Positions 236 to 47,461 are shown, numbered from the stretch's first letter. The stretch: 48,636 nucleotides of DNA from Acidimicrobiales bacterium (GCA_035689115.1 DASSMA010000083.1:1-48636), one strand, 5' to 3'. Notes: generated by a model not told the origin, from the sequence alone. Numbers and translations: made by a program.

Positions 236-799
236 CTACGCGAGACTCCGGAGGTAGTCGTCCGGCGAGGCGAGCGGTGCTGGCGGATAGGAGCGCCGGG
301 CGTAGTCGCGGTCGAATGGCAGTTCGTCGAGGGTGTCGGGGTCCCACATCGAGCACCGAGCGGCGAAGGGGTTGCCGGCGAAGACCAGGATGGCGGCGTT
401 GTTGGATCGCAACGGGTTCTGGGTGGCGTGGATCGTCTTCGCTCCCATGAGCGCGACAGCGCCGGCGTCGTAGTCGTGGCCGTTGGCGACGGCGAGCCCG
501 TGTGGCGTGCGCCGGTAGAAGGTGTCGCGTGACCGTCCGGCGTAGAGCGCGACGGCGCTCCAGCATCCGTGGTCGTGTGGCTTGAAGGAGAAGCTCGGGG
601 CGTTCACGGCCTGGAAGATCGTGAGGTCGTCGCTCACGTGGAGCAGCGTCATCTGCTGGCGACCGGCGGGCAGGGCGGCGTCCACCGCAGCCGGGTCGCG
701 GATCGCCCGTTCGAGTACCTCGCGCACGGCTGCTCGTGGGTCGGTCTCGGCGATGGCGCGCTGGCAGTCGACGACGAGCTGGTCGAGGTCGAGCCTCAC
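236..799 (-). CDS. Cupin-fold protein with a 3-His metal site (cysteine-dioxygenase-like). The GTG start overlaps the upstream stop as GTGA.
   Basis: Cupin motifs are present ('KPHDHGCW' and 'AKTIHATQNP'). The ORF-track N-terminus is an extension; GTG at 799..797 overlaps the TGA of the upstream NTF2 gene (798..796). Confidence 0.55.
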   Translation of the reverse strand: MRLDLDQLVVDCQRAIAETDPRAAVREVLERAIRDPAAVDAALPAGRQQMTLLHVSDDLTIFQAVNAPSFSFKPHDHGCWSAVALYAGRSRDTFYRRTPHGLAVANGHDYDAGAVALMGAKTIHATQNPLRSNNAAILVFAGNPFAARCSMWDPDTLDELPFDRDYARRSYPPAPLASPDDYLRSLA

Positions 800-1227
800 T
801 GGTTCGGCCCCTTGAGTTGTGCGATGGCGGCGCCGGCGTCGAGCCACACGTTCTCGCGGGCGATGCGGCCGTCCCGGAACTCGAAGACGTGGAGCACCCG
901 AATCGAGATGCGCCGGCCGTTGCCGGGGATGCCGAGGAAGTCGCCGACCACGGACGCTGTCCAGATCTTGTCGTCGACGACGAAGTCGTCCCCGTAGAGG
1001 CGACGCAGGACGTCGGCTCGTTCGCCTTTGACGTTGGTGAAGAGGTGGCCGTAACGCTCGCCGACTTCGGCTGGGCCGTGCAGCACGCCGGCGGGGTCGC
1101 CGACCACGTCGTGGACGACGTCGTCGGTGAAGGTCGCAAGGGTGCCGTCGACGTCGCCTTCGGCTTCTCGACGAAAGTGGTCCTCGATCAGCTGGTCGAT
1201 GGCGTTGCGGCTCATCGTGGTCGCCAT
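796..1227 (-). CDS. SnoaL/NTF2-like (ester cyclase / ketosteroid-isomerase-like) protein
   Basis: The 'MATTMSRNAIDQLIEDHFRREAEGDVDGTLATF...' N-terminus is typical of the SnoaL-like fold. The ATG at 1227 is preceded 6 nt upstream by AAGGAG; the longer ORF start at 1254 would leave only 31 nt to the divergent gene. Confidence 0.7.
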   Translation of the reverse strand: MATTMSRNAIDQLIEDHFRREAEGDVDGTLATFTDDVVHDVVGDPAGVLHGPAEVGERYGHLFTNVKGERADVLRRLYGDDFVVDDKIWTASVVGDFLGIPGNGRRISIRVLHVFEFRDGRIARENVWLDAGAAIAQLKGPNQ

Positions 1228-1285
1228 GACGTCTCCTTTGACTTTACCGATCATCTAACGACGATGGAGAGGGTAAACTGACGGA

Positions 1286-1942
1286 GTGGCCGACGTCAAC
1301 CCCCGCAAGGCGTACGCATCGCCGCTTCGTGAGCGGCAAGCGGCCTTGACCCGACGAGCCGTGCTCGATGCGGCACGCGAGCTGTTCGTCGACCGGGGCT
1401 ACACGGCGACGACGATCGACGCCATCGCCGACAGGGCGGGGGTGAGCAAGCCGACAGTCTTCAGCGCCGTCGGCAACAAGCAGACGCTCCTGAAGACGCT
1501 GCGAGACGTCGCCTTCACCGGCGACGAAGCCCCCGCCGCGGTACGGGACCGTCCGCACGTCGAGGCCATCCGAGCCGAACCGGACCGGCGACGTGCAGTC
1601 GAGCTCATCGCCAAGCACCTCACTGCGGTGGCAGGACGATACGCCGAGCTCCACGAGGTCCTGCGCGCCGCCGCGCACGGAAGCGACAAGGAGTTGCGCG
1701 ATCTATGGGAGGCCGAGCAGCGGGAGGGGTTGGCGGGCGCAGGCTTCTGGGTCGGGATCCTCGCCGAAAAGGGACCGCTGCCCGCCGGCATGGCGCGGCG
1801 CGCTGCGGTCGATGTCATGTGGCTCCTGATGACGCCCGACCATTACTACCGACTCGTCCACCAGCGTGGCTGGTCTCAGCGCAGGTACGAATCCTGGCTC
1901 GCCGACACCATCACACGGCTGCTCCTCGACGAGGGTTCCTGA
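1286..1942 (+). CDS. TetR/AcrR family transcriptional regulator
   Basis: An N-terminal HTH is present ('RRAVLDAARELFVDRGYTATTIDAIADRAGVSKPTVFSAVGNK'). The gene is divergent from the NTF2/cupin pair with about 58 nt between them. Confidence 0.85.
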   Translation: MADVNPRKAYASPLRERQAALTRRAVLDAARELFVDRGYTATTIDAIADRAGVSKPTVFSAVGNKQTLLKTLRDVAFTGDEAPAAVRDRPHVEAIRAEPDRRRAVELIAKHLTAVAGRYAELHEVLRAAAHGSDKELRDLWEAEQREGLAGAGFWVGILAEKGPLPAGMARRAAVDVMWLLMTPDHYYRLVHQRGWSQRRYESWLADTITRLLLDEGS

Positions 1943-3904: not shown

Positions 3905-4756
3905 TCAGCGGTGTCCCGCCCGGGCCGGCGTCCGGTCCTCCGCCAACACCACCAGCGTCGCTGCCGCCCTGTCGTGCAGCCCCTGGCGCACCGGGCTGCT
4001 GGTGATGGGCAGGTAGACGGCGATCGTCCAGACCAGTTCCAGGGGCCCCAGAGCCCGGTCGAGGGGAGGGACGAGCAGCACGAGCAGGCCGGGACCGGCG
4101 GGCACCACCCATCGGATCGCCGCCCGCCGCCAGCCAGGGACGGCGTGGTCGGCGGCTCCGACGATCTTCGTCCCTGCCGCCACCTTGCCGGGCGTGCGGC
4201 CGCGGAGGGCGACGGGGACGATGTGGTAGAGCGCCACCCAGGCGGTCAGCACCAGCTGAGGCGCGACCGCCTGCCGGTCTCGGTGGAAGACGCCGACGTA
4301 GGTCCACAACCAGACCAGTCCGAGGATGATGCTGTCGACCACATAGCCGGCGAGCCGCCGGCCGGGTTCGGCCAGCGCCGGCGAGTCCGGTGCATCGACC
4401 GAGGGAGGCGGCGTCGTGTCGGGCTCGTCCTGCAGCGTACCGGTGGCCGGGACGGCCTTTGCCTCGTCGACGACTGCGTCGACCTCAGCTTCGTGCGAGT
4501 GGGGGACGACGAGGCGGCCACTGTCCCAGACCTGTGGGATCTCGGCGCCCCGCAGGACGAGCTCGACCCTGGTCCGACGCTCGGCCGGCCAGTCCGCAAG
4601 GTCGTACTCGACGACCTCGTGGTCGCCGTCCCGGGCGACTGGGCTCGGTCGCTCGGTCACCAGCGCCACCCCGCAGTCGGCGCACGTGTCGAACGCCGGC
4701 CGGTACTCCGCCCCGCACTGGGGGCACCATCGACCTCCCGCGTCGAGCGTGTTCAC
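3905..4756 (-). CDS. RDD-family membrane protein with an N-terminal zinc-ribbon
   Basis: 'RWCPQCGAEYRPAFDTCADCG' is a CxxC...CxxC ribbon. The C-terminal 'YVVDSIILGLVWLW...' is an RDD-type transmembrane module. Start is GTG. Confidence 0.75.
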   Translation of the reverse strand: MNTLDAGGRWCPQCGAEYRPAFDTCADCGVALVTERPSPVARDGDHEVVEYDLADWPAERRTRVELVLRGAEIPQVWDSGRLVVPHSHEAEVDAVVDEAKAVPATGTLQDEPDTTPPPSVDAPDSPALAEPGRRLAGYVVDSIILGLVWLWTYVGVFHRDRQAVAPQLVLTAWVALYHIVPVALRGRTPGKVAAGTKIVGAADHAVPGWRRAAIRWVVPAGPGLLVLLVPPLDRALGPLELVWTIAVYLPITSSPVRQGLHDRAAATLVVLAEDRTPARAGHR

Positions 4757-4805: not shown

Positions 4806-6581
4806 CTAATGACCCGGTTTCCGCCCCCTCCGCGAGCGCGCCACTCGCCCGATGGTCACCGGGGACAGCCGGGGTGGGATCCAGGGCGGCCTCGGTGTGG
4901 CCAGACGGTCGAGGGCGGTGGCGACCATCCAGTGGTGTCCCTGGGCGGCGTCGCAGCCGAGGGCGGTGAGGCAGGCGGCCTCGTCGGCGGTCTCGACGCC
5001 CTCGGCGACGGCCAGCATGTCGAGGGAGTGGGCGAGGTCGATCACCGCCGACAGCACGGCCTGCTTCCGGGGGTCGTGGTCGAGGCCGGTCACGAAGGCC
5101 CGGTCCAGCTTCAGCACGTCGACCGGCAGGTCGAGCAGCTTGGCCAGTGCCGAATAGCCGGTGCCGAAGTCGTCGACGCAGATGCGGATACCCCGCTCAC
5201 GGAGCATCCCGAGGAGGCGCGCCGCCGGCTCGAGGTTCATGAAGGCGCTCTCGGTGACCTCCAGCCAGAGGCTCCCCGGCTGCAGCCCGGTCTGGAGCAG
5301 GAGGCTGTCCACCATGGGCAGCAGGTCGGCGCCGAGGAGCTGCCGGGGCGCCACGTTGACCGACACCACGGCGTCGCCCACACCGAGTGCCGCCTGCAAG
5401 TCGGCGTGGTCGTGGCAGGCCTGCTGCAGGACCCAGCCCCCGAGCCGGGAGATCAGGTCTGCGTCCTCGGCCACGGCGATGAACTCCCCCGGGAACAGCA
5501 GCCCCCGGGAGGGGTGGTGCCAGCGGAGGAGGGCTTCGACCCCGAGCGGGCCACCGGTGGCGAGGTCGACGATCGACTGGTAGGCCAGGCCGAACTCGTC
5601 CCGGTTGAGGGCCCGCTGGAGGTCGTGCTCCATGTCGAGCCTGATCAGGGTCCGGTCCCGCAGGGTCTCGTCGAACACCTCGACCCGGTTGCGGCCCAGT
5701 TCCTTGGCGGCGTAGAGGGCCATGTCGGCGTTGCGGAGAAGCGCCTGCGGCTCTTCGAGCCCCCAGGAGAGCGCCACGCCGACGCTCGTGGCCGCGAAGA
5801 TCTCCCTGCCCGCCAGCCGGATGGGTTCGGCCAGGATGCCCCTGATGCGTTCGGCGAGGGCCCGCGCGTGCTCGACGCCGTCGATGCCCTCGCACAGGAC
5901 CAAGAACTCGTCGCCGCCGAGGCGGCCGGCCGTGTCACCGCCCCGGAGGGTGGAGGTCAGCCTGGCGGACATGGCGACCAGGAGCTGATCGCCGGCCTCG
6001 TGGCCCAGGCTGTCGTTGATCAGCTTGAAGCGGTCGACGTCGAGGAACAGCAGGCCGACCGCGCTGGGCTGGCGGGCCGTCCGCGCCAGCGCGACGCCGA
6101 GCCGGTCGAGGATGAGTGTCCGGTTGGGGAGGCCGGTCAGCGGGTCGTGGAGGGCCTGGTGGGCGAGGAGGAGCTGGCCGCGCTTGCGCTCGACGGCGTA
6201 GCGGACGGCCCGGGCCAGGAGGCTCCCGTCCAGCTGGTTCTTGAGGAGGTAGTCCTGGGCGCCCGCCTGCAGGGCCTGCAGCGCCAGGTCGGTGTCGTCC
6301 CGCCCGGTGATGACCACGACGGCGAGCTCCGGATCGTGCGCCTGGATCCGGGCCAGGCCGTCGAGGCGATCGGCGTCGGGCAGGGACAGATCGAGGATCA
6401 CGCAGTTGTGGACCCGGTTGTCGAGCACCTCGTACACGTCGGCGATGCGCTCGACGTGGGTCAGCAGCAGGTCGCCGCCCACCCAGGCGCGACGCAACAG
6501 CTCGGCGACGAGGCGGGCGTCGACCGGGGAGTCCTCGACGAGCAGGACCCCTTCGCCAACGGCCCCCGTCGCCGTTATCAC
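4806..6581 (-). CDS. Response-regulator receiver fused to GGDEF and EAL domains (diguanylate cyclase / phosphodiesterase)
   Basis: The REC domain reads 'VLLVEDSPVDARL...ILDLSLPD'; the GGDEF motif is intact ('RLGGDEFLVL'); the EAL domain is present ('GVEALLRW', 'EVTES'). The GTG at 6581..6579 overlaps the TGA of the receiver gene as GTGA. The ORF-track N-terminus up to 7232 is an out-of-frame shadow of the upstream gene. Confidence 0.9.
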   Translation of the reverse strand: MITATGAVGEGVLLVEDSPVDARLVAELLRRAWVGGDLLLTHVERIADVYEVLDNRVHNCVILDLSLPDADRLDGLARIQAHDPELAVVVITGRDDTDLALQALQAGAQDYLLKNQLDGSLLARAVRYAVERKRGQLLLAHQALHDPLTGLPNRTLILDRLGVALARTARQPSAVGLLFLDVDRFKLINDSLGHEAGDQLLVAMSARLTSTLRGGDTAGRLGGDEFLVLCEGIDGVEHARALAERIRGILAEPIRLAGREIFAATSVGVALSWGLEEPQALLRNADMALYAAKELGRNRVEVFDETLRDRTLIRLDMEHDLQRALNRDEFGLAYQSIVDLATGGPLGVEALLRWHHPSRGLLFPGEFIAVAEDADLISRLGGWVLQQACHDHADLQAALGVGDAVVSVNVAPRQLLGADLLPMVDSLLLQTGLQPGSLWLEVTESAFMNLEPAARLLGMLRERGIRICVDDFGTGYSALAKLLDLPVDVLKLDRAFVTGLDHDPRKQAVLSAVIDLAHSLDMLAVAEGVETADEAACLTALGCDAAQGHHWMVATALDRLATPRPPWIPPRLSPVTIGRVARSRRGRKPGH

Positions 6582-7036
6582 GTCACCGGCTCGGAGACGT
6601 CCCGGGGAAGCTCGACCACCTGGAGCCAGAACGCCTCGATCTTGCCGACGATCTCGACCAGCGCCCGGAAGTCGACGGGCTTGACGACGTAGCAGTTGGC
6701 GTGGAGGTTGTAGGCCCGCAGGATGTCCTCCTCCGCCTTCGACGTGGTGAGGATCACGACCGGGATGGCGCTGAGCACCGCGTCGAGGCGGATCGCCTCG
6801 AGCACCTCGTGGCCGGAGCGGCCGGGCAGGTTCAGGTCGAGGAGCACGAGGTCGGGCGGTGGCGTCCCGTCGTACTCGCCCCGCCCGTGGAGAGCGTCCA
6901 GCGCCAGGTCGGCGTCGCCGGCCACGACCAGCTGGTTGGCCACCTTGGAGCGCTGGAGCGCTTCCCGGGTGAGGCGGACGTCGCCCGGGCTGTCCTCCAC
7001 CAGGAGTATCCGGACGGCCCGGTGCGTGGCCGTCAC
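6578..7036 (-). CDS. Stand-alone response-regulator receiver (CheY-like)
   Basis: 'VRILLVEDSPGDVRLTREAL...LVLLDLNLPGRSGHEVLEAIR...VVILTTSKAEEDILRAYNLHANCYVVKP' is a receiver domain. The GTG at 7036 overlaps the histidine-kinase stop as GTGA. Confidence 0.85.
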   Translation of the reverse strand: MTATHRAVRILLVEDSPGDVRLTREALQRSKVANQLVVAGDADLALDALHGRGEYDGTPPPDLVLLDLNLPGRSGHEVLEAIRLDAVLSAIPVVILTTSKAEEDILRAYNLHANCYVVKPVDFRALVEIVGKIEAFWLQVVELPRDVSEPVT

Positions 7037-9000
7037 TGCTCCCACTCCACCGGAATCGTGAACCAGAAGGTCGCACCTCCGCCGGGCGTCGCCTCCACCC
7101 CGACGTGTCCGCCCCGCTGCTCGACCACCTTCTTGCAGATGGCCAGGCCCATGCCCGTGCCCGGGTACTCCGTCCGCCGCTGCAGGCGTTGGAACATCCC
7201 GAACACCCGCTCCCGGTAGGCGGGGTCGACACCGATGCCGTGGTCCTCGACCTCGAACCGCCACCCGCCCGGGACCCCGGTGGCGGACAGGCGCACCTCG
7301 GGTTCGACGCCGGGAAGGGTGAACTTCACGGCGTTGGCGACGAGGTTGTGGAGGACCTGGCGGGCCGGAACGGCGGCCCACGTGACCGACGGCAGCGGGT
7401 CGACGCGTACGCAGGTGCCCGGCTCGACGCCGGCCAGACCGGCGAGCACGTCGGCCGCCAGCTCCTCCATGTCGACCACCTCCGTGGCTTCGTGCTGCCC
7501 CGCCCGGGAGTACTCGAGCAGGTCGGCGACGAGCGCCTGCATGCGCTCGACTCCCGAGGTGATGAAGTCGAGATACTCGCGCCCGGGGCCGTCGAGCCGG
7601 GCGGCGTAGTCCTCCGCCAGGAGGCGGGCGAACCCGCTCACCACCCGGAGGGGCTCGCCCAGGTCGTGGGACGCCACGTAGGCCAGCTCGGCGAGGTCGT
7701 GGTTCGACCGCTCCAGTTCGCGGTTGCGCCGCTGGAGCTCGGCCTGGGCGGCTCGGCTCTCGCTCACGTCCCGCAGGATCACGGTGAACGTCGTCTGCCC
7801 GTCAGACGCCAGCTTGGAGATCGAGGCCTCGGCGGGGAACAGGGAGCCGTCGCGCCGGCGTCCCTGGATCCCGCCGCGACGGACACCCATGGGTCGGGCC
7901 ACGTCGGCGGCCGCCGCGAACTCCTCGACGTGGCGGCGGTGGACGTCGCCCAACGCCGCCGGGAGCAGCACGTCCAGGGGTTCACCCGTCACGTCGTCGG
8001 CGTCCCACCCGAAGATCCGTTCCGCGCCCTGGTTGAACTGGACGATGCGCTGCTGCTCGTCGACGCTGATGATGGCGTCCACCGCCAGGTCGACGAGGGC
8101 CGCCAACCGGGCTTCGGTGGTGCGGGCGAGCTGTTCGAGCTGGCGCTGGCGGCTGAGGTCGCGGATGACCGCCGAGGCGCCCACCACCGCTCCGGTCGCG
8201 TCGCGGACCGGCGATGCCGTGAGCGCCACCGCCACGAGCCGGCCGTCCTTGCGGAGGCGGACCGTGTCGAGGTCGTCGACCCGCTGGCCGGACCGGACCC
8301 GGGCGGTGACGCCGGCCAGTTCGCCTTCCCGTTCCGGCGGGACGATCACGCCGATGTTGTGGCCGACCACCTCGGGCTCGGACCATCCGAAGACGTGCTG
8401 GGCGCCGGCGTTCCAGCTGCGGATCGTCCCGTCGAGGTCCGTGCTCATCACCGCCACCGTCGTGGACCGGACGAGGGCCCCGAACTCGGCCAGGCGGTCC
8501 CGGGCCCGAACCAGTTCCGGGTGCGCGGCCCCCCCGCCGTCGTCGTCCCCGGGGAGGGAAGGCGGCGCCCCCGCCAGCCGGGCTGCCGGTGCGGGGCCTC
8601 CCTCGGGCGGCGGCGGAGCCAGGAGCTCCAGCATCCGCTCCGGCGTGGCGGTCTTCTCGATGTAGCCGTCGGCCCCCAGCGAGGCGACCTCGGCCGACAT
8701 CCGCGAGGCGGCGAAGCCCGACAGCACGACGACCCTGGCGGCGTTGGCCACTTCCTTGATGCGGGGGAGCGCCTCCAAGCCGTCCATGACCGGCATCGCC
8801 AGATCGAGAAGGACCAGGTCGGGCTGGAGGCGGTCGGCCAGCACGACGGCCTCCGCACCGTCCTCTGCCTCGCCGATCACGGTGAAGCGGCCGGTGCGTT
8901 CCAGCATCTTCCGCAGCAGCGTCCGGAGCCCGGAGGCGTCGTCGACGACGAGGACGCGGGTCGCGGTCGCCGGGGGGGCCTCGCCGAGGGTCGCGGTCAC
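7033..9000 (-). CDS. Hybrid sensor histidine kinase: N-terminal receiver, two PAS/PAC domains, HisKA, HATPase_c
   Basis: The REC domain reads 'RVLVVDDASG...LVLLDLAMPVMDG'. The H-box is 'ELAYVASHDLGEPLR', and the ATPase G-boxes are present ('HGIGVDPAY', 'GTGMGLAICK'). No transmembrane segment, so it is soluble. The GTG at 9000 overlaps the upstream stop as GTGA. Confidence 0.9.
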   Translation of the reverse strand: MTATLGEAPPATATRVLVVDDASGLRTLLRKMLERTGRFTVIGEAEDGAEAVVLADRLQPDLVLLDLAMPVMDGLEALPRIKEVANAARVVVLSGFAASRMSAEVASLGADGYIEKTATPERMLELLAPPPPEGGPAPAARLAGAPPSLPGDDDGGGAAHPELVRARDRLAEFGALVRSTTVAVMSTDLDGTIRSWNAGAQHVFGWSEPEVVGHNIGVIVPPEREGELAGVTARVRSGQRVDDLDTVRLRKDGRLVAVALTASPVRDATGAVVGASAVIRDLSRQRQLEQLARTTEARLAALVDLAVDAIISVDEQQRIVQFNQGAERIFGWDADDVTGEPLDVLLPAALGDVHRRHVEEFAAAADVARPMGVRRGGIQGRRRDGSLFPAEASISKLASDGQTTFTVILRDVSESRAAQAELQRRNRELERSNHDLAELAYVASHDLGEPLRVVSGFARLLAEDYAARLDGPGREYLDFITSGVERMQALVADLLEYSRAGQHEATEVVDMEELAADVLAGLAGVEPGTCVRVDPLPSVTWAAVPARQVLHNLVANAVKFTLPGVEPEVRLSATGVPGGWRFEVEDHGIGVDPAYRERVFGMFQRLQRRTEYPGTGMGLAICKKVVEQRGGHVGVEATPGGGATFWFTIPVEWEQ

Positions 9001-9595
9001 CTCGCGCCGGCGTCCTCGACCGGCCGGGCCGGGCGGTCGCGCAGCAGGTCACCGGGACGCGGCCGGCCGTCGAGGCGGGCGCTGCCGAGCAGGTCGCTGA
9101 TGAGGTCCCGGGCCGAGACCAGCGTGTGCTCGAGCGCTTCCTGGGAGGTCTGCTTCTCGTCGAGCAGGAGTGCGAGATGGGCCGCCGAGAGGCCCTGGAC
9201 GATCTCGTCGTTGATCTGGAGCGCCTGCCGCTGGCGCTCACGCAGGTCGTCGAACAGCTTGGCGCCCCGCATCAGGGGGCCGTACGTCCGCCGCAGTGAC
9301 CAGTAGTAGACGCCGATCGCCGCGGTGGAGAGGTCCCACACCGCCTCGTGCCAGTCGAGGTTGGTGCGAATCGCACTCCCGGCCACGCGGTCGAGGCCGA
9401 GCGTGGGCAACAGCAGGTGCTCGGCGTGCAGGGCGTGCCCGATGCCGCAGCGAAGAAGATCATCGCCGTCGCCAGGCCCAGCCGGTTGGACCTGACCTGG
9501 CCCGAGCGGGCGAGGGGTACGAGGACGGCGAGTGCGATGGCCATGTAGACGACGAACAGCATCAGATTGGCCACAAGCGTGAGCTTCCACCACAT
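8997..9595 (-). CDS. Membrane-anchored HisKA_3-like sensor remnant with no ATPase domain. The reading frame is broken by a -1 shift near 9439-9441.
   Basis: The 5' part (frame of ORF 9272..9769) encodes 'MWWKLTLVANLMLFVVYMAIALAVLV...MIFFAAASG'. The 3' part (frame of ORF 8997..9692) encodes 'HALHAEHLLL...ERQRQALQINDEIVQGLSAAHLAL'. Restoring one G in a GGG run joins them. 'ERQRQALQINDEIVQGLS' aligns to the DesK/NarX H-box 'ERERIARDLHDTLGQKLS' with His replaced by Asn. A GGAG lies 7-10 nt upstream of the ATG at 9595. Confidence 0.5.
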
Positions 9596-9756
9596 GGCGA
9601 CGCTCCATGAATAGGACTGGCCGGGCGCCAGGCCTGCTCCCGCGCGCGGAGGTGGTCCACCATTGTTGGGCCGGGCTGCCATGCACTGCCATAGCCCGGA
9701 CGGGTCATTTCCGCTGGTGCGCGGCGCCGGCCGCGGCGATAGCGTCGGCACCCGAG

Positions 9757-11229
9757 ATGGCTCCCGCACGAAGGCCCACGATCGGCCGAGCCCAGGTCGA
9801 GGCGGCGGTCTCGAAGCTGCAGGACCGCATCGGAGAGACGATGGCGAGGACGGGCGTGCCCGGGCTGGCGGCCGGCGTGGTCTTCGACGACGAGGTGATC
9901 CTGGCCCGCGGCTTCGGCGTGAGCGCCCTCGGCGGGTCCGACGAGGTCGGACCCGACACGGTGTTCCAGATCGCCTCGCTGTCGAAGTCGCTGGGGTCCT
10001 CGGTCATGTGCGCGCTGGTGCGGGAGGGGGCGCTGGCCTGGGACGACCCCGTGCGAACGGGGATCCCGGAGTTCGCGCTCGCGGACCCGTGGGTCTCCGA
10101 GCACGTCACCTTCGCCGATCTCTTCAGCCACCGCAGCGGGCTGCCCGAGCACGCCGGCGACCTGCTCGAGGATCTCGGCTACGACCGCGACACCGTGCTG
10201 GCGCGCCTTCGTCTCTACCCGCTCGCCCCCTTCCGGGCCTCCTACGGCTACACCAACTTCGGGTTGACCGCGGCGGGCGTGGCCGGCGCCGCCCGGGCCG
10301 GCACGACGTGGGAGGGCGCCTCGGAGGACCTCCTCTACAAGCCGCTCGGCATGGCCAGTACCAGCTCCACCTACGCAGGCTTCAGGTCGCGCCCGAACCG
10401 GGCCACCGGCCATGTCCGCCGGGACGGACGCTGGATGGTCACGCCCCAGCCCCGCCAGCCCGACGGCCAGTCGCCGGCGGGGGGCGTGTCGAGCAGCGTC
10501 GACGACCTGCTCCTGTGGCTGGCCACGATGCTCCGGGACGGCGCCACCGCCGGCGGGTACGTCGTCGACCCGGGAGCGCTGGCGCAGAGCTGGCTGCCGC
10601 ACGCCATCTCGAATCCGCCGGACGGTCCCACCGCCCGGGCCGGCTTCTACGGCCTCGGCTTGAACGTGGCCTACGATGGGGGCGGGCGGCTCCGCCTGGG
10701 CCACTCGGGCGCCTTCGCCCTCGGCGCGGGCACCGCCATGACGTTCTATCCGGCCGAGCGGATGGGCATCGTGGTGCTCACCAACGGCGAGCCCACCGGT
10801 GTGGCCGAGGCCACCACCGAGAGCTTCTGCGACGACGTGTTCCTCGGTGCACAGCGCAACGACTGGCTGGCGGTGATCGGCCCGTACTTCGACCGGCTGA
10901 TCCATCCGGCGCCGAAGAAGGACTTCGCCGCCGGAGGGGAAGCGGCCGGGCCCGAGGAGCGCTACACCGGCACCTACGACAGCGACCTGTACGGCCGGCT
11001 CGTGGTCGATGCCCGGCCGGGCGGCGGGTTGCAGCTCACGCTCGGTCCCGACCGGCACGCGTACCTGCTGCAACCACACGAGGGCGACGAGATGTGGTGG
11101 CAGTTCGCCGGCGAGAACGCGGGGCCGCCGGCGGCGGCGACGTTCACCGTGACCGCCGGCGATCGCGCCACCGCGGTGACGCTGGACCATTTCGACAGCG
11201 AGGGGCTGGGTACCTTCACCCGGCGTTGA
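9757..11229 (+). CDS. Serine hydrolase of the beta-lactamase / class-C PBP-like family
   Basis: The S-x-x-K motif is present ('QIASLSKSLGS'), followed by 'YGYTNFG' and 'GHSG'. The ATG at 9757 is chosen; the upstream part of the ORF looks non-coding. Confidence 0.8.
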   Translation: MAPARRPTIGRAQVEAAVSKLQDRIGETMARTGVPGLAAGVVFDDEVILARGFGVSALGGSDEVGPDTVFQIASLSKSLGSSVMCALVREGALAWDDPVRTGIPEFALADPWVSEHVTFADLFSHRSGLPEHAGDLLEDLGYDRDTVLARLRLYPLAPFRASYGYTNFGLTAAGVAGAARAGTTWEGASEDLLYKPLGMASTSSTYAGFRSRPNRATGHVRRDGRWMVTPQPRQPDGQSPAGGVSSSVDDLLLWLATMLRDGATAGGYVVDPGALAQSWLPHAISNPPDGPTARAGFYGLGLNVAYDGGGRLRLGHSGAFALGAGTAMTFYPAERMGIVVLTNGEPTGVAEATTESFCDDVFLGAQRNDWLAVIGPYFDRLIHPAPKKDFAAGGEAAGPEERYTGTYDSDLYGRLVVDARPGGGLQLTLGPDRHAYLLQPHEGDEMWWQFAGENAGPPAAATFTVTAGDRATAVTLDHFDSEGLGTFTRR

Positions 11230-11378: not shown

Positions 11379-12434
11379 GTGCCCGACCTGACCGCGACCC
11401 TCGCAGGCGCCGATGCCGCCCCCGCACCCCGGCCCGGCCCCCGTCTCCCGCTGCCCCGTGGGCCGCGGAGCGAGCGACTGGTCGCCGTGCTCCGGCGCCG
11501 ACCACACGATCCGGGGCGGCTGCCCGACGGAGACGACGCCCTCGACGGCGAGGACACCCCGCTGGCGATCCACGTCCTCTACGAGCTCCACTACCGCGGG
11601 TTCGACGGGGTGGACGAGCGCTGGGAATGGGAGCCCGGCCTGCTGCGCGAGCGCCGCCGTCTCGAGGAGGAGTTCGAGGGCCGCCTCGTCGCCACCGTCG
11701 GGCCACCCCCGATCGCGCCGACCGCGAACGAGGTCACCGGCGAGCTCGACGGCCTCCTCCACCGGGAGTGCCCCTCGCTGTCGCGGTGGATCCTCGAGCA
11801 CGGCGGCCTGCGGGAGCTTCGGGAGCTGGCGGTCCATCGCTCGATCTACCAGCTCCGGGAGGCCGATTCCCACACGTTCGCCATCCCGCGCCTGTTCGGC
11901 GGGCCCAAAGCGGCACTGGTCGAGATCCAGCGGGGCGAGTACGGCGACGGCGCTCCGGCCGGCGTGCACGCCGAGGTCTTCGGCGAGACCATGGTGGCGC
12001 TCGGGCTCGACGCCACCTACGGCGCTTATCTCGACCACACCCCGGGCACCACCCTGTCGACGGTCAACCTGGTCGACCTGTTCGGGCTCCACCGGCGCTG
12101 GCGCGGAGCCCTCGCCGGCCATCTCGCCCACTTCGAGATGGCGTCCGCCGTCCCCATGGGCCGGTACGCCGCCGCGCTGCGGGCCGCCGGGCGACCCAGC
12201 GCGGCGCGCTTCTACGACCTCCACGTGGAGGCCGACGCCCACCACGGGCCGGTCGGGCGCGACCTGCTCGCCGCCGGCCTGGCCCGCGTCGAACCGGCCG
12301 TCGCCGGCGACATCGTGTTCGGGGCGCGGGCCCTGGCCGCCGTGGAAGACCGCTTCGCAACGGCGATCATGGAACGCTGGGCGTGCGGCGATTCGTCCCT
12401 GCGCCGGCCCATCCGCTGCGACGGCGGGACATGA
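11379..12434 (+). CDS. Iron-containing redox enzyme family protein (haem-oxygenase-like fold)
   Basis: 'HVLYELHYRGFDGVDERWEWEPGLL...GEYGDG...HAEVF' is typical of this actinobacterial family. The stop overlaps the next ATG as ATGA. Confidence 0.65.
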   Translation: MPDLTATLAGADAAPAPRPGPRLPLPRGPRSERLVAVLRRRPHDPGRLPDGDDALDGEDTPLAIHVLYELHYRGFDGVDERWEWEPGLLRERRRLEEEFEGRLVATVGPPPIAPTANEVTGELDGLLHRECPSLSRWILEHGGLRELRELAVHRSIYQLREADSHTFAIPRLFGGPKAALVEIQRGEYGDGAPAGVHAEVFGETMVALGLDATYGAYLDHTPGTTLSTVNLVDLFGLHRRWRGALAGHLAHFEMASAVPMGRYAAALRAAGRPSAARFYDLHVEADAHHGPVGRDLLAAGLARVEPAVAGDIVFGARALAAVEDRFATAIMERWACGDSSLRRPIRCDGGT

Positions 12435-13918: not shown

Positions 13919-14338
13919 GTGGACAATTCCGTGACGATGCGAAGCACCTACGAACGCATCAGCGCCGGCGACATCGACGGCTTCGGGGCGCTGGTGGCCG
14001 ACGGCTTCGTCGAGAATCAGGGTGGTCCGGGCTTCCCGCCCACCAAGGAGGGGACGCTGGCGTTCTTCCGGACTCTCGTGGGCGCCTTCCCCGACCTGCA
14101 CATGGCCGTCGAGGACCTGCTCGCCGACGGCGACAAGACCGTCGCGCGGGTGCGGGCGACGGGGACGCAGCAGGGCGAGTTCATGGGCGTGCCCGCCACC
14201 GGCAACGCCGTCGACATCCAGCTGATCGACATCATGCGGTTCGACGACGCCGGCCTGGTGTGCGAGCACTGGGGCGTCGCCGACATGCTGTCGCTCATGC
14301 AGCAGCTCGGCGTCGTGCCCGCCGGCCCGCCGGAGTAG
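13919..14338 (+). CDS. SnoaL-like ester cyclase / NTF2-fold protein
   Basis: 'ERISAGDIDGFGALVADGFVENQG...FPDLHMAVEDLLADGDKTVARVRATGTQQGEFMGVPATGNAVDIQLIDIMRF' is classic for the ester-cyclase family. Confidence 0.75.
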   Translation: MDNSVTMRSTYERISAGDIDGFGALVADGFVENQGGPGFPPTKEGTLAFFRTLVGAFPDLHMAVEDLLADGDKTVARVRATGTQQGEFMGVPATGNAVDIQLIDIMRFDDAGLVCEHWGVADMLSLMQQLGVVPAGPPE

Positions 14339-14355: not shown

Positions 14356-15711
14356 TCACGACTCCGGGGCCGCCCGTTCCTCCGCCTGGCGCGCCGCGGC
14401 GAGCACGGCGTCGTACCGCCTTCGGACGTCGGCCCGGTCGCCGGGCTCGGGCACCGACTCGTCGCAACCCCGCTGGATCATGGCGGCCTGGTCGAGCAGG
14501 GCGGCCCGCTGGTCGGCGGTGGTTGTGTGGCCCATGATCGCGGCCAGGGCGTCGAGCTGGCGGATCATCACCGCCGGCATCCCCGCCGAGGCCTGGCGGA
14601 TGGTGTCGAAGGCCCGGTCGACGACGCGCTCGTAGCGGAGCCTGGCGGCGATGACCCGCACGTACCCCTGGCGGTCCCGGTGCACGGCCGCCGGCCTCCA
14701 CCGCGCCGTGATCTTGCACAGGCCGTCGCTCAGCCAGTCGATGCAGGTGAGGGCGCTGAAGGTGTCGTTGACCGCAGGGGACAGCGCCCGGATGGCGATC
14801 TCGACGAGCTGGTCGATGGCGAAGGTGAGGTCCTGCGCCAGCGTGCGGTGGGGCCCCGTGAGGTGGGCCCGCTCGAGGCTGCGGGTGACCTGCGGCACGG
14901 CCTCGGCCGGCCAGACATGGGCGAGCGGGCCGCCGGCCACGACGAAGTGGCCGGGGCGGTGGGTGAGCCGGATCACCGCCTGCGCCTCCGCCGCGATCGT
15001 GACCAGCGTGTCGAAGGCGACGAGCTGGAGGTAGCCGCTCGCGGGTGCGGGCACGGCGGCACCGCCGTCGTCGATGCGGCGGCGGAGCTCGGCGACGGGC
15101 AGGCCGGCCTCGGGCCCGCGGTGCTCGCCGGCGCCGATGTCCTCGGCCTCGATGGCCGCCGCCAGGTCGCGGGCGATGCTCGCGATCACCTGGGGCAGCT
15201 GGATCGACGTGGCCACGTGGTGGATGAAGTAGATCAGCACTCCGAGCGAGAGCAGCACCAGGGCCAGTGCCACGGTGATCGACGCGTGCGGCACGTACTC
15301 GCCGTGTGAGCCGGTGGAGATCGAGCCGAGGGCGAGCACGGCGAACACGAACGTGGCGACGAAGGTGCCGAGGGTCACCTGGGTGCCGCGGTCGCGGATG
15401 AAGTTTCCGAGGATCCGCGGCCCGAACTGCGTGGAGGCGAGCGTGAGGGCGACGATGGTGATGGAGAACACCAGGCCGACCACCGTGATCACGGCGGCGG
15501 CGATGGCGGTGAGGATCTGGCGGGCGGCGTCGGCCGAGCCGTTGTCGATCCAGGAGGGCAGCGTGATGTCGCCGCGGTAGGCGGCCTTGTCGACCAGCTG
15601 GATCGCGACGAACAGGAGGACGGCGCCGGCGACCTCGATGGTGGGGATCAGCCAGAGGTTGGTGCGGAGGGCGTGGCTGCGTGCTGCGGGCGCCCGCCAG
15701 CGACGGCTCAT
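14356..15711 (-). CDS. DUF2254-family membrane protein
   Basis: It has a multi-TM N-terminus and a conserved soluble C-terminal domain ('ALSPAVNDTFSALTCIDWLSDGL'). Confidence 0.7.
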   Translation of the reverse strand: MSRRWRAPAARSHALRTNLWLIPTIEVAGAVLLFVAIQLVDKAAYRGDITLPSWIDNGSADAARQILTAIAAAVITVVGLVFSITIVALTLASTQFGPRILGNFIRDRGTQVTLGTFVATFVFAVLALGSISTGSHGEYVPHASITVALALVLLSLGVLIYFIHHVATSIQLPQVIASIARDLAAAIEAEDIGAGEHRGPEAGLPVAELRRRIDDGGAAVPAPASGYLQLVAFDTLVTIAAEAQAVIRLTHRPGHFVVAGGPLAHVWPAEAVPQVTRSLERAHLTGPHRTLAQDLTFAIDQLVEIAIRALSPAVNDTFSALTCIDWLSDGLCKITARWRPAAVHRDRQGYVRVIAARLRYERVVDRAFDTIRQASAGMPAVMIRQLDALAAIMGHTTTADQRAALLDQAAMIQRGCDESVPEPGDRADVRRRYDAVLAAARQAEERAAPES

Positions 15712-15756: not shown

Positions 15757-17961
15757 TCAGGCGAACAGGGCCCGGAGGACGGGGAACCCCTTGACGAGGA
15801 CGAATGCGTTGTCGGCGTGCAGGGAGACGGCGACGTGCCGGCCGGTGGTCGACCGGATCACGAGGGTCCCGTTGGCGGAGCGGGGTTCGCCGAGCGTGTT
15901 CCAGGGGAGCACCTGGTCGGGCTTGCGCCGGTGGGCGACCCCGCCCCGGGAGAGCACGGCGTCGCCGATCGTGACCGTCGCCCCGGTGCGAAGGGTGCCG
16001 GCCAGGGACTCGACGAGCCGGGGTGCCACCTGCGACGCCAGGACGTCCCAGGCGTAGCTGGTCATGGGGAGAAGCGGGTTGGACGACGACCCTCCGCTGC
16101 TCGCCGCCTTGAGCCGGAAGCGCCGCCCGTCCATCGTGCCGATCCTGATCTCGGCGCTGGTGGCCATCTGCTGGCGCTTGACGACGAAGGCGGCCGACGC
16201 GATGGCGGCATAGGGGATCACGTCGTTCCCGAGGGCGATGGCGGTGGGCGAGACAGCCATCTGCGCCCTCCGGCCCAGCCCGGCCGGGACCTCGATCTGC
16301 CACGACCACCCACCCCCCATGGGTGCGAAGGGAGGAACGGGCGGCTGGAGGAGCGGCGGAGCGGGGGCGGGGGCCGCCTGCGGGATCGGCGCCGGCGCCG
16401 GCGGCGCCTGCACCATCGGCGGCTCCACGCTCGCCGGCACCGCCGCCGCCGCGTCGCCCGAGAGCGTGACCTCGCCGCGCAGGGCGAGGTCGACGAGCTG
16501 GTCGAGTGCGAGAGCCGAACCGGCGGCGTCGACGACCGAGAGAGGACCTGCCCACGAGAAGGCCAGCCGCACGCCGGGGGTGGCGAGTGCCCGGTCGACC
16601 ACCACCGCCCGCTCGGCGGCGGCCACCACGCGCTCGCGCTCGTCGGGCGTGCCCGTCCGCCAGCCGGCGGCGATGAGGGCGGCGGCGAAGTCGCGCTGGA
16701 TCCCGTGGTCACGGACGGACCGGAGGCCGGCCACGCCCGCCGGCAGCCGGAGCTGCTCGAGCACTCGGTCGGCCACCCGGGCCCGCCCCCGCTGGGCCGG
16801 CGCGAACACGACGTCGGGCCACTGCTCCCACGGCGCCACCTGCGACACGGAGCCCCCATTGACCAGGCGGAGCCAGTGCTCGTCGGCGGCCATGAGGACG
16901 CGCTGCGGGTCGCGGAGGACGGCGCGCGCAGCCCGCTGGTCGGGCGCCGGCGTCCCCTCCTCGGGAAGGGCGCCGAGCTGGGCGATCCGCTGCTCCGTCG
17001 GTGGGTGGGACGCCCACGGGTGGCCGACAGCGGCGGCCCGGCCGGCCAGCAGCTCCCTGACGCGCGCCGGCTGGACGAGGAGCTCCCGCAGGCCGCGACC
17101 GACGTCGTCGGGCCGGTAGCCGGCGTCCAGCATCGGCACCAGGTAGGTGTTCCGCAGCAGCGCCTCGGCCCGGGCGGCGACCTCGAGCCGCGCCAGGGCG
17201 TCGGCGATCGCCTGGCGGCCGGCGACGCGGACGGCGGCCCGGTCGGCGACCAGCTCCTGGCCGCGGCGCACGGCGGCCGTGATCCGCCGCTGGAGCTCCC
17301 AGTACTTGACGAAGACCAGGGCGACCCGCGAGCCCTTGAGCGTCTCGACGACCCGCGCCAGCGCCTGCTCGGTGCGGAACGTGAGGGGGCCGAGCCGGGT
17401 GTCGCCGCCGCTGAAGTGTCCCATCTCGTGGGCCAGCACGGCCCGGAGCTGGGAGACGGTGAGCACGTCGAACAGCGGCGTGCCGATGGCCAGCGTGCGG
17501 CGGCGGGAGAACAGCCCGAGGAGCGGGCCGAACTCGTACACGTAGGCGTTCACGTCGGAGACCAGCACGACCCGGTCGGGCACGGGAGCGCCGGCCACCC
17601 CGGCCACCTCGCGGACAAGGGCGAACAAGCCCGGCTCGTCCGCTTCCGACAGCTCGAACTCGTCCTTCGGCCGCTCGGGCGACTTCACCATGGCGACGAG
17701 GGCGCGGCCGAGGCCGAGGGCGACCGCCGCGGTGAGGATCACCAGGCCGAACTGCACCCGGCCGAGCCGGTAGATCACCACGTTCACCGCGACCAGCGCG
17801 AGGACGACGGCAGCCCCGAGGACCGGCACGCCGACCAGCAGGGCGACGGACACCATGGCGCGGAGGACCAGCGACTGCGGGGGCTTCGGCGGGGTGGTGG
17901 AAGGGGCCGGCAGCACCACCGGGTCGAGGCTCAGCACCGGTGCGCTGGCGACGTCGGGCAT
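15757..17961 (-). CDS. M48-family zinc metalloprotease (HtpX-like) with a long C-terminal extension including a PH-like terminal domain
   Basis: Two N-terminal transmembrane helices precede the 'HEMGH' zincin motif. The ATG at 17961 is chosen ('MPDVASAPVL...'); the upstream part of ORF 18252 looks like noise. Confidence 0.75.
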   Translation of the reverse strand: MPDVASAPVLSLDPVVLPAPSTTPPKPPQSLVLRAMVSVALLVGVPVLGAAVVLALVAVNVVIYRLGRVQFGLVILTAAVALGLGRALVAMVKSPERPKDEFELSEADEPGLFALVREVAGVAGAPVPDRVVLVSDVNAYVYEFGPLLGLFSRRRTLAIGTPLFDVLTVSQLRAVLAHEMGHFSGGDTRLGPLTFRTEQALARVVETLKGSRVALVFVKYWELQRRITAAVRRGQELVADRAAVRVAGRQAIADALARLEVAARAEALLRNTYLVPMLDAGYRPDDVGRGLRELLVQPARVRELLAGRAAAVGHPWASHPPTEQRIAQLGALPEEGTPAPDQRAARAVLRDPQRVLMAADEHWLRLVNGGSVSQVAPWEQWPDVVFAPAQRGRARVADRVLEQLRLPAGVAGLRSVRDHGIQRDFAAALIAAGWRTGTPDERERVVAAAERAVVVDRALATPGVRLAFSWAGPLSVVDAAGSALALDQLVDLALRGEVTLSGDAAAAVPASVEPPMVQAPPAPAPIPQAAPAPAPPLLQPPVPPFAPMGGGWSWQIEVPAGLGRRAQMAVSPTAIALGNDVIPYAAIASAAFVVKRQQMATSAEIRIGTMDGRRFRLKAASSGGSSSNPLLPMTSYAWDVLASQVAPRLVESLAGTLRTGATVTIGDAVLSRGGVAHRRKPDQVLPWNTLGEPRSANGTLVIRSTTGRHVAVSLHADNAFVLVKGFPVLRALFA

Positions 17962-44556: not shown

Positions 44557-47014
<2,458 letters not shown>

Positions 47015-47018
<4 letters not shown>

Positions 47019-47461
47019 AGGTCGCCATCCTCATGGGCTCGCCCAACGACAAGGCCAAGATGGCGGGCGCCGGCGAGATGCTGGGCCGCTTCGGGGTGGA
47101 GGTCGACGAGCGGGTGCTGTCCGCCCACCGCACGCCGGCCGACGTGGCGGCGTTCGCCTCCTCGGCGCGGGAGGAGGGGTTCGCCGCCGTCATCTGCGGC
47201 GCCGGCATGGCCGCCCACCTGGCGGGGGTCGTCGCCGCCCACACCACGCTGCCGGTGATCGGTGTGCCGCTGTCGGGCGGGGCCCTCAACGGCGTCGACG
47301 CCCTCTACGCCACCGTCCAGATGCCGAAGGGCATCCCCGTCGCCACCGTCGCCGTCGACGGCTCGGCCAACGCCGGCATCCTGGCCGTCGAGATGCTGGC
47401 CGTCACCGACGAGTCGCTGGCCGCCAAGCTGGCCGAGTTCCGGGCCGGCGGCGCTCGCTGA
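47015..47461 (+). CDS. purE: 5-(carboxyamino)imidazole ribonucleotide mutase
   Basis: '[11 protein letters not shown]...[23 protein letters not shown]' matches PurE. The GTG overlaps the purD stop as GTGA. Confidence 0.9.

Follow-up and report, generated by a model that had tools for sequence, protein, structure and literature searches.

Ethylene receptors and histidine kinases of the HisKA_3 type are the closest described counterparts of gene 1, the first gene of a four-gene cyclic di-GMP (c-di-GMP) signalling operon located at 4806..9595 on the minus strand of a 48,636-nt stretch of DNA from an Acidimicrobiales bacterium (below, the window; all positions and strands follow its numbering, and genes 1 to 4 are ordered along the minus strand). 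In ETR1 of Arabidopsis, the ethylene-binding copper has Cys65 and His69 as its ligands (PMC11971883). ETR1, SynEtr1 of Synechocystis and AzoEtr1 of Azospirillum have three N-terminal transmembrane (TM) helices with Cys-x3-His in TM2, and they carry this sensor on one chain with GAF/PAS domains and a kinase. Known bacterial ethylene receptors also affect biofilm-type behaviour (PMC11819568, PMC6682694); as bearers of putative bacterial receptors, proteobacteria and cyanobacteria are mentioned, not Actinomycetota (PMC7700396). In the HisKA_3 pairs DesK-DesR and NarX-NarL, taken in their phosphatase state, an ERQRxA...(H/N)DxxxQxL helix comes straight after the last TM helix, and the NarL-type receiver, fused to a DNA-binding domain, is encoded next door. 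The DxxxQ motif is required for the phosphatase activity of NarX (PMC3510030), and in the DesK:DesR complex Gln193 positions the attacking water, with His188 buried (PMC5231405). CheZ (DxxxQ), CheX/CheC (ExxN) and the Spo0E hairpins are helical as well and bring an acid/amide pair into the receiver active site (PMC3510030). DivL of Caulobacter, which reads DivK~P, and RocA of group A Streptococcus, which assists CovS, are kinase-derived, non-autophosphorylating proteins that steer another two-component protein (PMC4211667, PMC7028121).

Gene 1 shares with the ethylene receptors the three TM helices in the same register, the Cys-x3-His of TM2 and the equivalents of Tyr32 and Ile35 in TM1; with DesK and NarX it shares the helix that follows the membrane, the DxxxQ pair and the NarL-type receiver partner encoded next door. 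Unlike the former, it is a protein of 195 aa whose sensor is joined to a stalk without histidine and ATPase domain; unlike the latter, it has Asn in place of the phospho-His and no CA/ATPase domain, and its partner receiver is fused to a kinase or to a c-di-GMP enzyme. A CA domain, retained in degenerate form by DivL and RocA, which act on other kinases, is wholly absent from gene 1, which instead brings a membrane sensor of its own and is tied genetically to a receiver. CheZ, CheX/CheC and Spo0E are soluble, are not coupled to a TM sensor and have no sequence relation to HisKA_3.

Gene 1 belongs to a conserved family, overlooked in the preliminary description of this DNA, in which a predicted ETR1_N-like sensor is followed by a HisKA_3 stalk without the histidine. 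The ETR1 sensor fold and the HisKA_3 stalk are known, while their reduced combination was not found described in the curated families and the literature that were searched: no NCBIfam model matches the family, and the literature yielded no paper dealing with ETR1_N-like proteins of actinobacteria or with phosphatases that consist of a DHp alone, an absence that is not proof. A predicted two-gene core, composed of gene 1 and of the receiver (REC) domain at the start of gene 2, is found repeatedly in Actinomycetota, Chloroflexota and Dormibacterota. For the operon as a whole we propose a pathway leading from a membrane signal to c-di-GMP, in which gene 1 would be the input module acting on the N-terminal REC of gene 2; our belief and our doubt in this proposal are evenly balanced. 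As first described, the operon was routine, since a kinase, receivers, a GGDEF-EAL enzyme and overlapping stop and start codons are common in high-G+C bacteria. Its parts are as follows.

9452..9595, minus strand: gene 1, N-terminal part, codons 1-48, covering TM1, the cytoplasmic loop and the first half of TM2 (placed by a hidden Markov model, HMM, and the family alignment)
9450..9451, minus strand: frameshift site, the remnant of codon 49, 2 nt (GC) between TTC of Phe48 (9454-9452) and TGC of Cys50 (9449-9447)
8997..9449, minus strand: gene 1, C-terminal part, codons 50-199 and the stop, covering the rest of TM2, the outer helix, TM3 and the HisKA_3-like hairpin
7033..9000, minus strand: gene 2, a soluble kinase of 655 aa (Pfam, gene finder)
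6578..7036, minus strand: gene 3, a single-domain receiver of 152 aa with REC at 10-130 (nt 7009-6647; Pfam, gene finder)
4806..6581, minus strand: gene 4, a REC-GGDEF-EAL protein of 591 aa (Pfam, gene finder)

With its reading frame repaired, the gene 1 protein has 314 homologs of about 195 aa, none of which bears a functional name: the label is “hypothetical protein” or, in JGI records, “signal transduction histidine kinase”. Searching 1.84 billion proteins with a profile found 1376 cluster representatives, and a GTDB scan with one genome per species yielded 358 relatives. The carriers are mostly Actinomycetota (Acidimicrobiia, Mycobacteriales, Frankiales, Nocardioides, Solirubrobacterales), with some Chloroflexota and Dormibacterota; a cultured one is Nocardioides nanhaiensis JCM 18127 (L065). 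AlphaFold2 (AF2) modelling of the closest intact homolog (pLDDT 87.6) gave three TM helices (2-30, 38-66 and 82 onward) accompanied by a short outer helix, with TM3 continuing unbroken into a long helix that turns back on itself to form a hairpin. The topology places the N-terminus outside and the C-terminus in the cytoplasm, and the positive loop 29-38 fits the inside-positive rule.

For the membrane part, ETR1_N (PF25487, gathering cut-off 27 bits) is the sole matching Pfam family, found in 16/17 and in 69/109 members. The closest full-length homolog, P0002, scores 28.1 bits, and the fused relatives P0230, P0238 and P0236 score 30.5, 28.2 and 27.8 bits; the repaired window protein obtains 26.5 bits with Ser49 and 27.6 with Ala49, and since most members lie at 17-26 bits, the family straddles the cut-off. 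The profile strongly expects Cys50, because a repair without this residue scored only 18.8 bits, Cys50 adding about 8 bits. The numbering of the Arabidopsis ETR1 sequence used for comparison was checked against the residues quoted in PMC11971883. ETR1 residues 17-115 fall on profile positions 2-97 and family residues 4-72 on positions 4-72, which puts N10, Y17, I20, C50 and H54 on ETR1 D25, Y32, I35, C65 and H69; hhalign agrees. In the 87 gene 1 copies from related loci, on which all our residue counts are based, N10 is present in 78, Y17 in 84 and I20 in 81, and the copper-ligand positions of TM2 are kept in 79/87 (C50) and 85/87 (H54). We conclude that the TM part is a putative divergent branch of the ethylene-receptor sensor fold in which the metal site, as judged from sequence, has been kept. 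Since the same domain also heads HisKA-HATPase-REC(-Hpt) kinases and (PAS-)GGDEF-EAL enzymes, it can be regarded as a portable input module.

Fusions of the sensor to HisKA-HATPase-REC(-REC) or to a PAS-histidine kinase, a hybrid layout like that of plant ETR1, occur within Actinomycetota in L069, L076, L079, L081 and L075, the last being the cultured strain Virgisporangium aliadipatigenens NBRC 105644.

The cytoplasmic stalk of the family (residues 117-173) reads DL(K/R)ERQRQALEINDxIVQGLxxAxLAL... and is aligned by hhalign to the DHp of DesK with 30% identity over 57 columns, so that N129, D130 and Q134 correspond to H188, D189 and Q193 (the numbering of the DesK sequence was checked against PMC5231405). 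Where a kinase has its phospho-accepting histidine, position 129 is Asn in 78 of the 87 copies and His in a single one; the cytoplasmic part of these copies has no further conserved His, and no HATPase_c match was found in the family, whose proteins end at about 195 aa, right after the hairpin. The DxxxQ motif is preserved, with Asp130 in 81/87 and Gln134 in 80/87 followed by Gly-Leu. Gene 1 thus seems to keep the features of receiver binding and dephosphorylation and to have lost those of phosphorylation. The diagnostic residues of the family are few: C50, H54, N129, D130 and Q134.

One could also see in gene 1 an Hpt-like phosphotransfer protein or a split histidine kinase that receives its ATPase in trans from gene 2, as the DHp-like helical hairpin of the AF2 model and the JGI label on many homologs might suggest. 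This is hardly credible, because the residue counts give Asn at position 129 in nearly all copies and no other conserved histidine in the cytoplasmic part, and because many partners contain no ATPase domain at all; we rejected it on these counts.

The single copy with His at the phospho-acceptor position comes from L082 (7001-8144), where two tandem copies of gene 1, the second reading HDxxxQGL, precede a REC-REC-histidine kinase. L082 and L074, which also carries a gene 1 homolog, are archaeal-labelled bins (Thermoplasmatota), and the His-keeping copy could represent an ancestral form, a horizontal transfer or mis-binning. Two complete gene 1 modules in tandem are likewise present in the cluster representative P0159 (426 aa), whose first module reads EVHDGIVQDL, with the His kept.

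The neighbourhoods of gene 1 were surveyed in 84 related loci. In 73 of them the next gene downstream, on the same strand, starts with a REC, most of the others being contig ends or fused forms, and at 51 of these 73 junctions the two genes overlap by 4 nt (ATGA/GTGA), a gap of 1-10 nt separating them in most others. This junction, unlike the GTGA chain of the operon in the window, exceeds chance. The outputs attached to the partner REC vary: it may stand alone (about 130 aa, mainly in Solirubrobacterales) or be continued by HisKA-HATPase, by PAS-PAS-HisKA-HATPase (the window and L028) or by PAS-GGDEF-EAL. The receiver itself is one well-conserved subtype, VVGEAGDG...PDxVLLDLAMPVMDGLEALP...SGF...GADxYxxKG, which keeps the acidic pair, the phospho-Asp, the Ser/Thr and the Lys in 73-74 of 74 loci. 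Its best match among the receiver-type NCBIfam models is NarL, the class that pairs with HisKA_3 kinases, and the nearest solved structures are those of CheY proteins and NarL. Moreover, two cluster representatives (P0168 and P0217) carry a complete gene 1 protein and this receiver on one chain, as natural fusions. Because of this linkage, the variety of outputs, the single receiver subtype and the fusions, the conserved unit appears to be gene 1 plus this receiver, not gene 1 plus a kinase.

A connection to c-di-GMP is also seen beyond the window. In at least 10 loci of the Mycobacteriales/Frankiales type, the gene 1 homolog and its REC-kinase stand beside a REC-GGDEF-EAL gene (L003, L006, L009, L012, L014-L016 and L019, plus divergent copies in L001 and L007), and in loci of Chloroflexota and Dormibacterota a REC-PAS-GGDEF-EAL gene comes directly after the gene 1 homolog. 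In the Acidimicrobiia loci L004 (8632-9848) and L011 (7626-8682), the partner consists of two open reading frames (ORFs), a REC of about 167 aa and a HATPase-containing protein of about 221 aa, which reflects either a genuine split or another frameshift.

A number of observations weigh against reading gene 1 as the sensor and phosphatase at the head of such a pathway. On the side of the stalk, the HisKA_3 match of Pfam at residues 120-172 attains just 16-18 bits for a cut-off of 24, the best E-value among 109 members being 5e-5, and the hhalign runs with ETR1 and DesK, made with single-sequence templates, gave a probability of about 4%, although their registers agree with the Pfam coordinates, on which the registers used here rest. 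A phosphatase needs a phosphodonor, and loci whose partner is a lone REC or REC-PAS-GGDEF-EAL encode no kinase next to it. AF2 modelling of the fusion P0168 folded both domains well, but with a pTM of 0.46 it provided no usable geometry between them. The exact four-gene arrangement was found in no other related locus, including the closest one, L028, and gene 1 of the window is itself frameshifted.

On the side of the sensor, Asp25, Tyr32, Ile35, Pro36 and Ile62 were reportedly found by Wang et al. in 2006 to be among seven ETR1 residues needed for ethylene binding, together with Cys65 and His69. This set is only partly preserved in the gene 1 family: Tyr17 and Ile20 are kept, but the position of Asp25 is Asn in 78/87 and Asp in 4/87 copies, that of Pro36 is Ala, Ser or Val and never Pro, and that of Ile62 is Phe in 85/87. 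In addition, the family has invariant His57, His60 and Arg77, which are absent from ETR1. The extra residues and the altered ETR1 positions suggest that the ligand may not be ethylene. The Asp25Asn form of ETR1 is functional, with an ethylene affinity about 100-fold lower, and natural Asn variants are present in cyanobacteria (PMC11971883).

The equivalents of Asp130 and Gln134 bear on the catalytic role itself, since in DesK:DesR both Asp189 and Gln193 also contact the receiver (PMC5231405). Lying on the receiver-contact face, the two residues could be conserved for docking alone, a further point against catalysis. We regard it as possible, with doubt outweighing belief, that gene 1 catalyses dephosphorylation of its partner REC. 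Alternatively, gene 1 may be a non-catalytic pseudokinase, whose hairpin without histidine docks the receiver, tethers the soluble partner to the membrane sensor and gates it allosterically. The linkage and the fusions require just binding, several types of partner have no kinase nearby to supply phosphate, and pseudokinases of this sort have precedents (PMC4211667, PMC7028121). Nevertheless, a near-invariant DxxxQ (81 and 80 of 87 copies) facing a phospho-acceptor pocket kept in 74/74 partners is more than docking demands, and we consider the purely docking role somewhat unlikely.

The preliminary description treated gene 1 as an open frame at 9595..8997, which fails because this interval is 599 nt long, a length not divisible by 3. 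ATG 9595, which has GGAG 8 nt upstream, is in the frame of the ORF 9272..9769 and reads MWWKLTLVANLMLFVVYMAIALAVLVPLARSGQVRSNRLGLATAMIFF, while the stop at 8997 is in the frame of the ORF 8997..9692 and reads CGIGHALHAEHLLLP...INDEIVQGL.... An HMM built from 60 homologs matches the first frame at its positions 1-48 and the second frame at 48-192. The second part contains Cys50-x3-His54-x2-His57-x2-His60 in TM2, Arg77 in the short outer helix and ERQRQALQINDEIVQGL in the helical hairpin (Asn129, Asp130, Gln134). Just two bases separate the codons of Phe48 and Cys50, and therefore one base of codon 49, which in relatives encodes Thr or Ser, is missing. A programmed -1 frameshift was considered and rejected: a slip after TTC TTC would give the right length, but C-TTC-TTC is not an X-XXY-YYZ slippery site, and more than 300 homologs, including the nearest, P0002, are all single ORFs. 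The deletion appears to be either a true pseudogene lesion or an assembly error.

If the lesion is genuine, the input module would be dead here and the kinase would run on its PAS domains alone, leaving an ordinary PAS-kinase/two-receiver/c-di-GMP operon. Apart from the lost nucleotide, this agrees with the GenBank annotation, which gives only a 137-aa remnant of gene 1 (P0001, 9410..8997, locus tag VFJ85_19910), and with the two PAS domains of gene 2, which most partners lack. On the other hand, no stop interrupts either half of gene 1, and before as well as after the deletion the protein retains 66-68% identity to the nearest intact homolog, which fits a very recent event or a consensus error of the metagenome assembly; the overlap of the gene 1 stop with the gene 2 start is also intact. 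We consider the loss of the input module unlikely.

Coming back to an intact gene 1 as the input, helix 1 of the stalk in a gene 1 dimer would be the docking site for the NarL-like REC with which gene 2 begins. According to the ligand or metal-site state of the membrane domain, gene 1 would dephosphorylate this REC, or fail to do so, or merely hold it, and the state of the REC would set the activity of the PAS-PAS-HisKA-HATPase core. Gene 2 would then phosphorylate gene 3, acting as a sink or an adaptor, and the REC of gene 4, whose phosphorylation would shift the balance between c-di-GMP synthesis and breakdown.

Extending this to the whole family, we tentatively suggest an undescribed accessory class, in which a copper-type TM sensor for a small hydrophobic ligand would be joined to a stalk lacking both the histidine and the ATPase, serving as a signal-gated phosphatase for a dedicated receiver. 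If so, sensor-phosphatases without a kinase would be common among the Actinomycetota and Chloroflexota of soil, with c-di-GMP control as their usual end point, and the membrane fold of the ethylene receptors would be a common sensor in soil Actinomycetota. The family would also present a natural case of a histidine-kinase stalk that is joined to a sensor of its own and has been reduced to dephosphorylation or docking.

For genes 2-4, the domain calls of the preliminary description were borne out by Pfam. Gene 2 comprises REC (aa 16-127; nt 8955-8620), two PAS domains (173-281 and 308-414; 8484-8158 and 8112-7759), HisKA (437-501; 7692-7498) and HATPase_c (545-651; 7368-7048). It starts from GTG 9000, the first start codon past an in-frame stop and the sole one ahead of REC beta1. 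Scores of 46.7 bits for HisKA and 94.8 bits for HATPase_c mark it as a canonical HisKA kinase, and its translation has the H-box ASHDLGEPLR, HNLVANAVKF, DHGIG and GTGMGLAI; the N-terminal REC is NarL/CheY-like. Gene 3 has GGAG 8 nt upstream, with an alternative in-frame GTG possible at 7045, and its nearest solved structures are Rcp1, RcpA and RcpB (1i3c, Rcp1, E 2e-35), receivers of the phytochrome-associated Rcp1/RcpA type. The H-box of gene 2 and the Rcp1-like nature of gene 3 recall pairs such as Cph1-Rcp1, but unlike Cph1, gene 2 contains no phytochrome module.

Gene 4 is composed of REC (12-123; 6548-6213), GGDEF (143-299; 6155-5685; 141.5 bits) and EAL (320-551; 5624-4929; 229.5 bits). 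Both catalytic motifs had been called intact, rightly so: RGGD-x5-GGDEF unites the I-site and the active site, and EALLR, N, EVTE, DDFGTGYS, KLD, EGVE and QG are all present, so that gene 4 has the motifs expected of a putative bifunctional diguanylate cyclase/phosphodiesterase. The acidic pair, phospho-Asp, Thr/Ser and Lys are complete in all three receivers of the window (the gene 2 N-terminus, gene 3 and gene 4), and those of genes 3 and 4 share an LLVEDSPxDxRL start. The likely substrates of gene 2 are gene 3 and the gene 4 receiver.

It had been supposed that the four proteins form a single pathway, and this idea stands, given the tight co-directional packing, the phosphorylatable receivers, the intact GGDEF-EAL output and the recurrence of the arrangement in related loci. 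Its more specific version was a generic membrane sensor signalling to the kinase and, through a phosphorelay via the kinase's own receiver and a CheY-like intermediate, to the cyclase/phosphodiesterase, with the GTGA chain enforcing a 1:1:1:1 ratio. Gene order, overlaps and intact domains would suit it, but neither an Hpt domain nor a second phospho-His was found in the four proteins by Pfam or NCBIfam, and the cytoplasmic part of gene 1 lacks a conserved His. Within gene 2 the receiver precedes the kinase core, and it varies together with gene 1 rather than with the output; the overlaps also occur elsewhere in the window and do not determine protein ratios. We find this version improbable. 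Because of the missing Hpt domain the layout is not a phosphorelay and looks rather like one kinase with two candidate receiver substrates and an N-terminal input receiver of its own.

A comparable logic of accessory sensor, kinase and c-di-GMP enzyme is known from the H-NOX/HnoK/HnoB-D network. Phosphorylation shifts the cyclase/phosphodiesterase balance in the REC-GGDEF-EAL enzymes Lpl0329 and RavR (bioRxiv 10.1101/604611, PMC6707612). The systems to which they belong, lpg0279-0278-0277 (Lpl0330/Lpl0329) of Legionella and RavS/RavR of Xanthomonas, resemble the operon in having an accessory sensor or modulator, a kinase and a receiver-gated bifunctional enzyme, and in branching to more than one receiver (bioRxiv 10.1101/604611, PMC6707612). 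Their accessory proteins are unrelated to gene 1, which is DHp-derived, and the N-terminal input receiver of gene 2 is a further difference.

The three GTGA overlaps reported previously were read in the sequence at 9000..8997, 7036..7033 and 6581..6578 (minus strand), in the contexts GCG AGG TGA with GTG 9000-8998, GAG CAG TGA with GTG 7036-7034 and GTG ACG TGA with GTG 6581-6579. A codon-usage gene finder trained on this window, used for the starts and for junction statistics, independently chose 9000, 7036 and 6581. By its calls, 4-nt overlaps account for 7 of the 25 same-strand junctions in the window and for 4 of the 22 outside the operon, so the GTGA chain is real but typical of this genome. 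G+C is 67-78% along the whole window (72% is given for the genome) and G+C at third codon positions (GC3) is near 0.9, which means that G often precedes a TGA stop. The four genes make up what is, by all predicted features, a real, ordinarily packed bacterial signalling operon. The overlaps would allow coupling by termination and reinitiation but do not prove translational coupling, and the 1:1:1:1 stoichiometry drawn from them falls, since a 4-nt overlap does not fix protein ratios and is a common junction type here. A consensus scan revealed no internal promoter or terminator in the operon, which is expected at this G+C.

A second chain of two consecutive 4-nt overlaps runs on the plus strand (44566-45858, 45855-47018, 47015-47461), and further overlaps of this length occur at the junctions 799/796 and 23613/23610. 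The operon is flanked by two features.

9596..9756, no strand: divergent intergenic region between gene 1 and the beta-lactamase-like gene 9757..11229 (plus strand), presumed to be the promoter region
3905..4756, minus strand: RDD-family membrane protein with an N-terminal zinc ribbon (Pfam)

No sigma-70 consensus match was found in the intergenic region. The RDD gene does lie where it had been placed, 49 nt past the gene 4 stop, but it is not a conserved neighbour, having no match in the 84 related loci, and probably does not belong to the signalling system. Its zinc ribbon weakly resembles the NCBIfam model “zinc ribbon-containing (seleno)protein DG” (32.8 bits for a cut-off of 130), which is probably just the ribbon motif.

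Divergently from gene 1, the plus-strand gene 9757..11229 encodes a beta-lactamase-fold serine hydrolase with a DUF3471 tail; its longest ORF starts at 9607, 11 nt from the gene 1 ATG, and codon usage favours 9757. It is followed by 11379..12434 (plus), a Haem_oxygenas_2 “iron-containing redox enzyme”. SnoaL-like proteins of the polyketide-cyclase fold are encoded at 796..1254 (minus) and 13919..14338 (plus), and a TetR regulator at 1361..1942. Finally, a DUF2254 membrane protein (14356..15711, minus; 396 bits) is separated by 45 nt from 15757..17961 (minus), which encodes a protein of 734 aa with an M48 peptidase domain.

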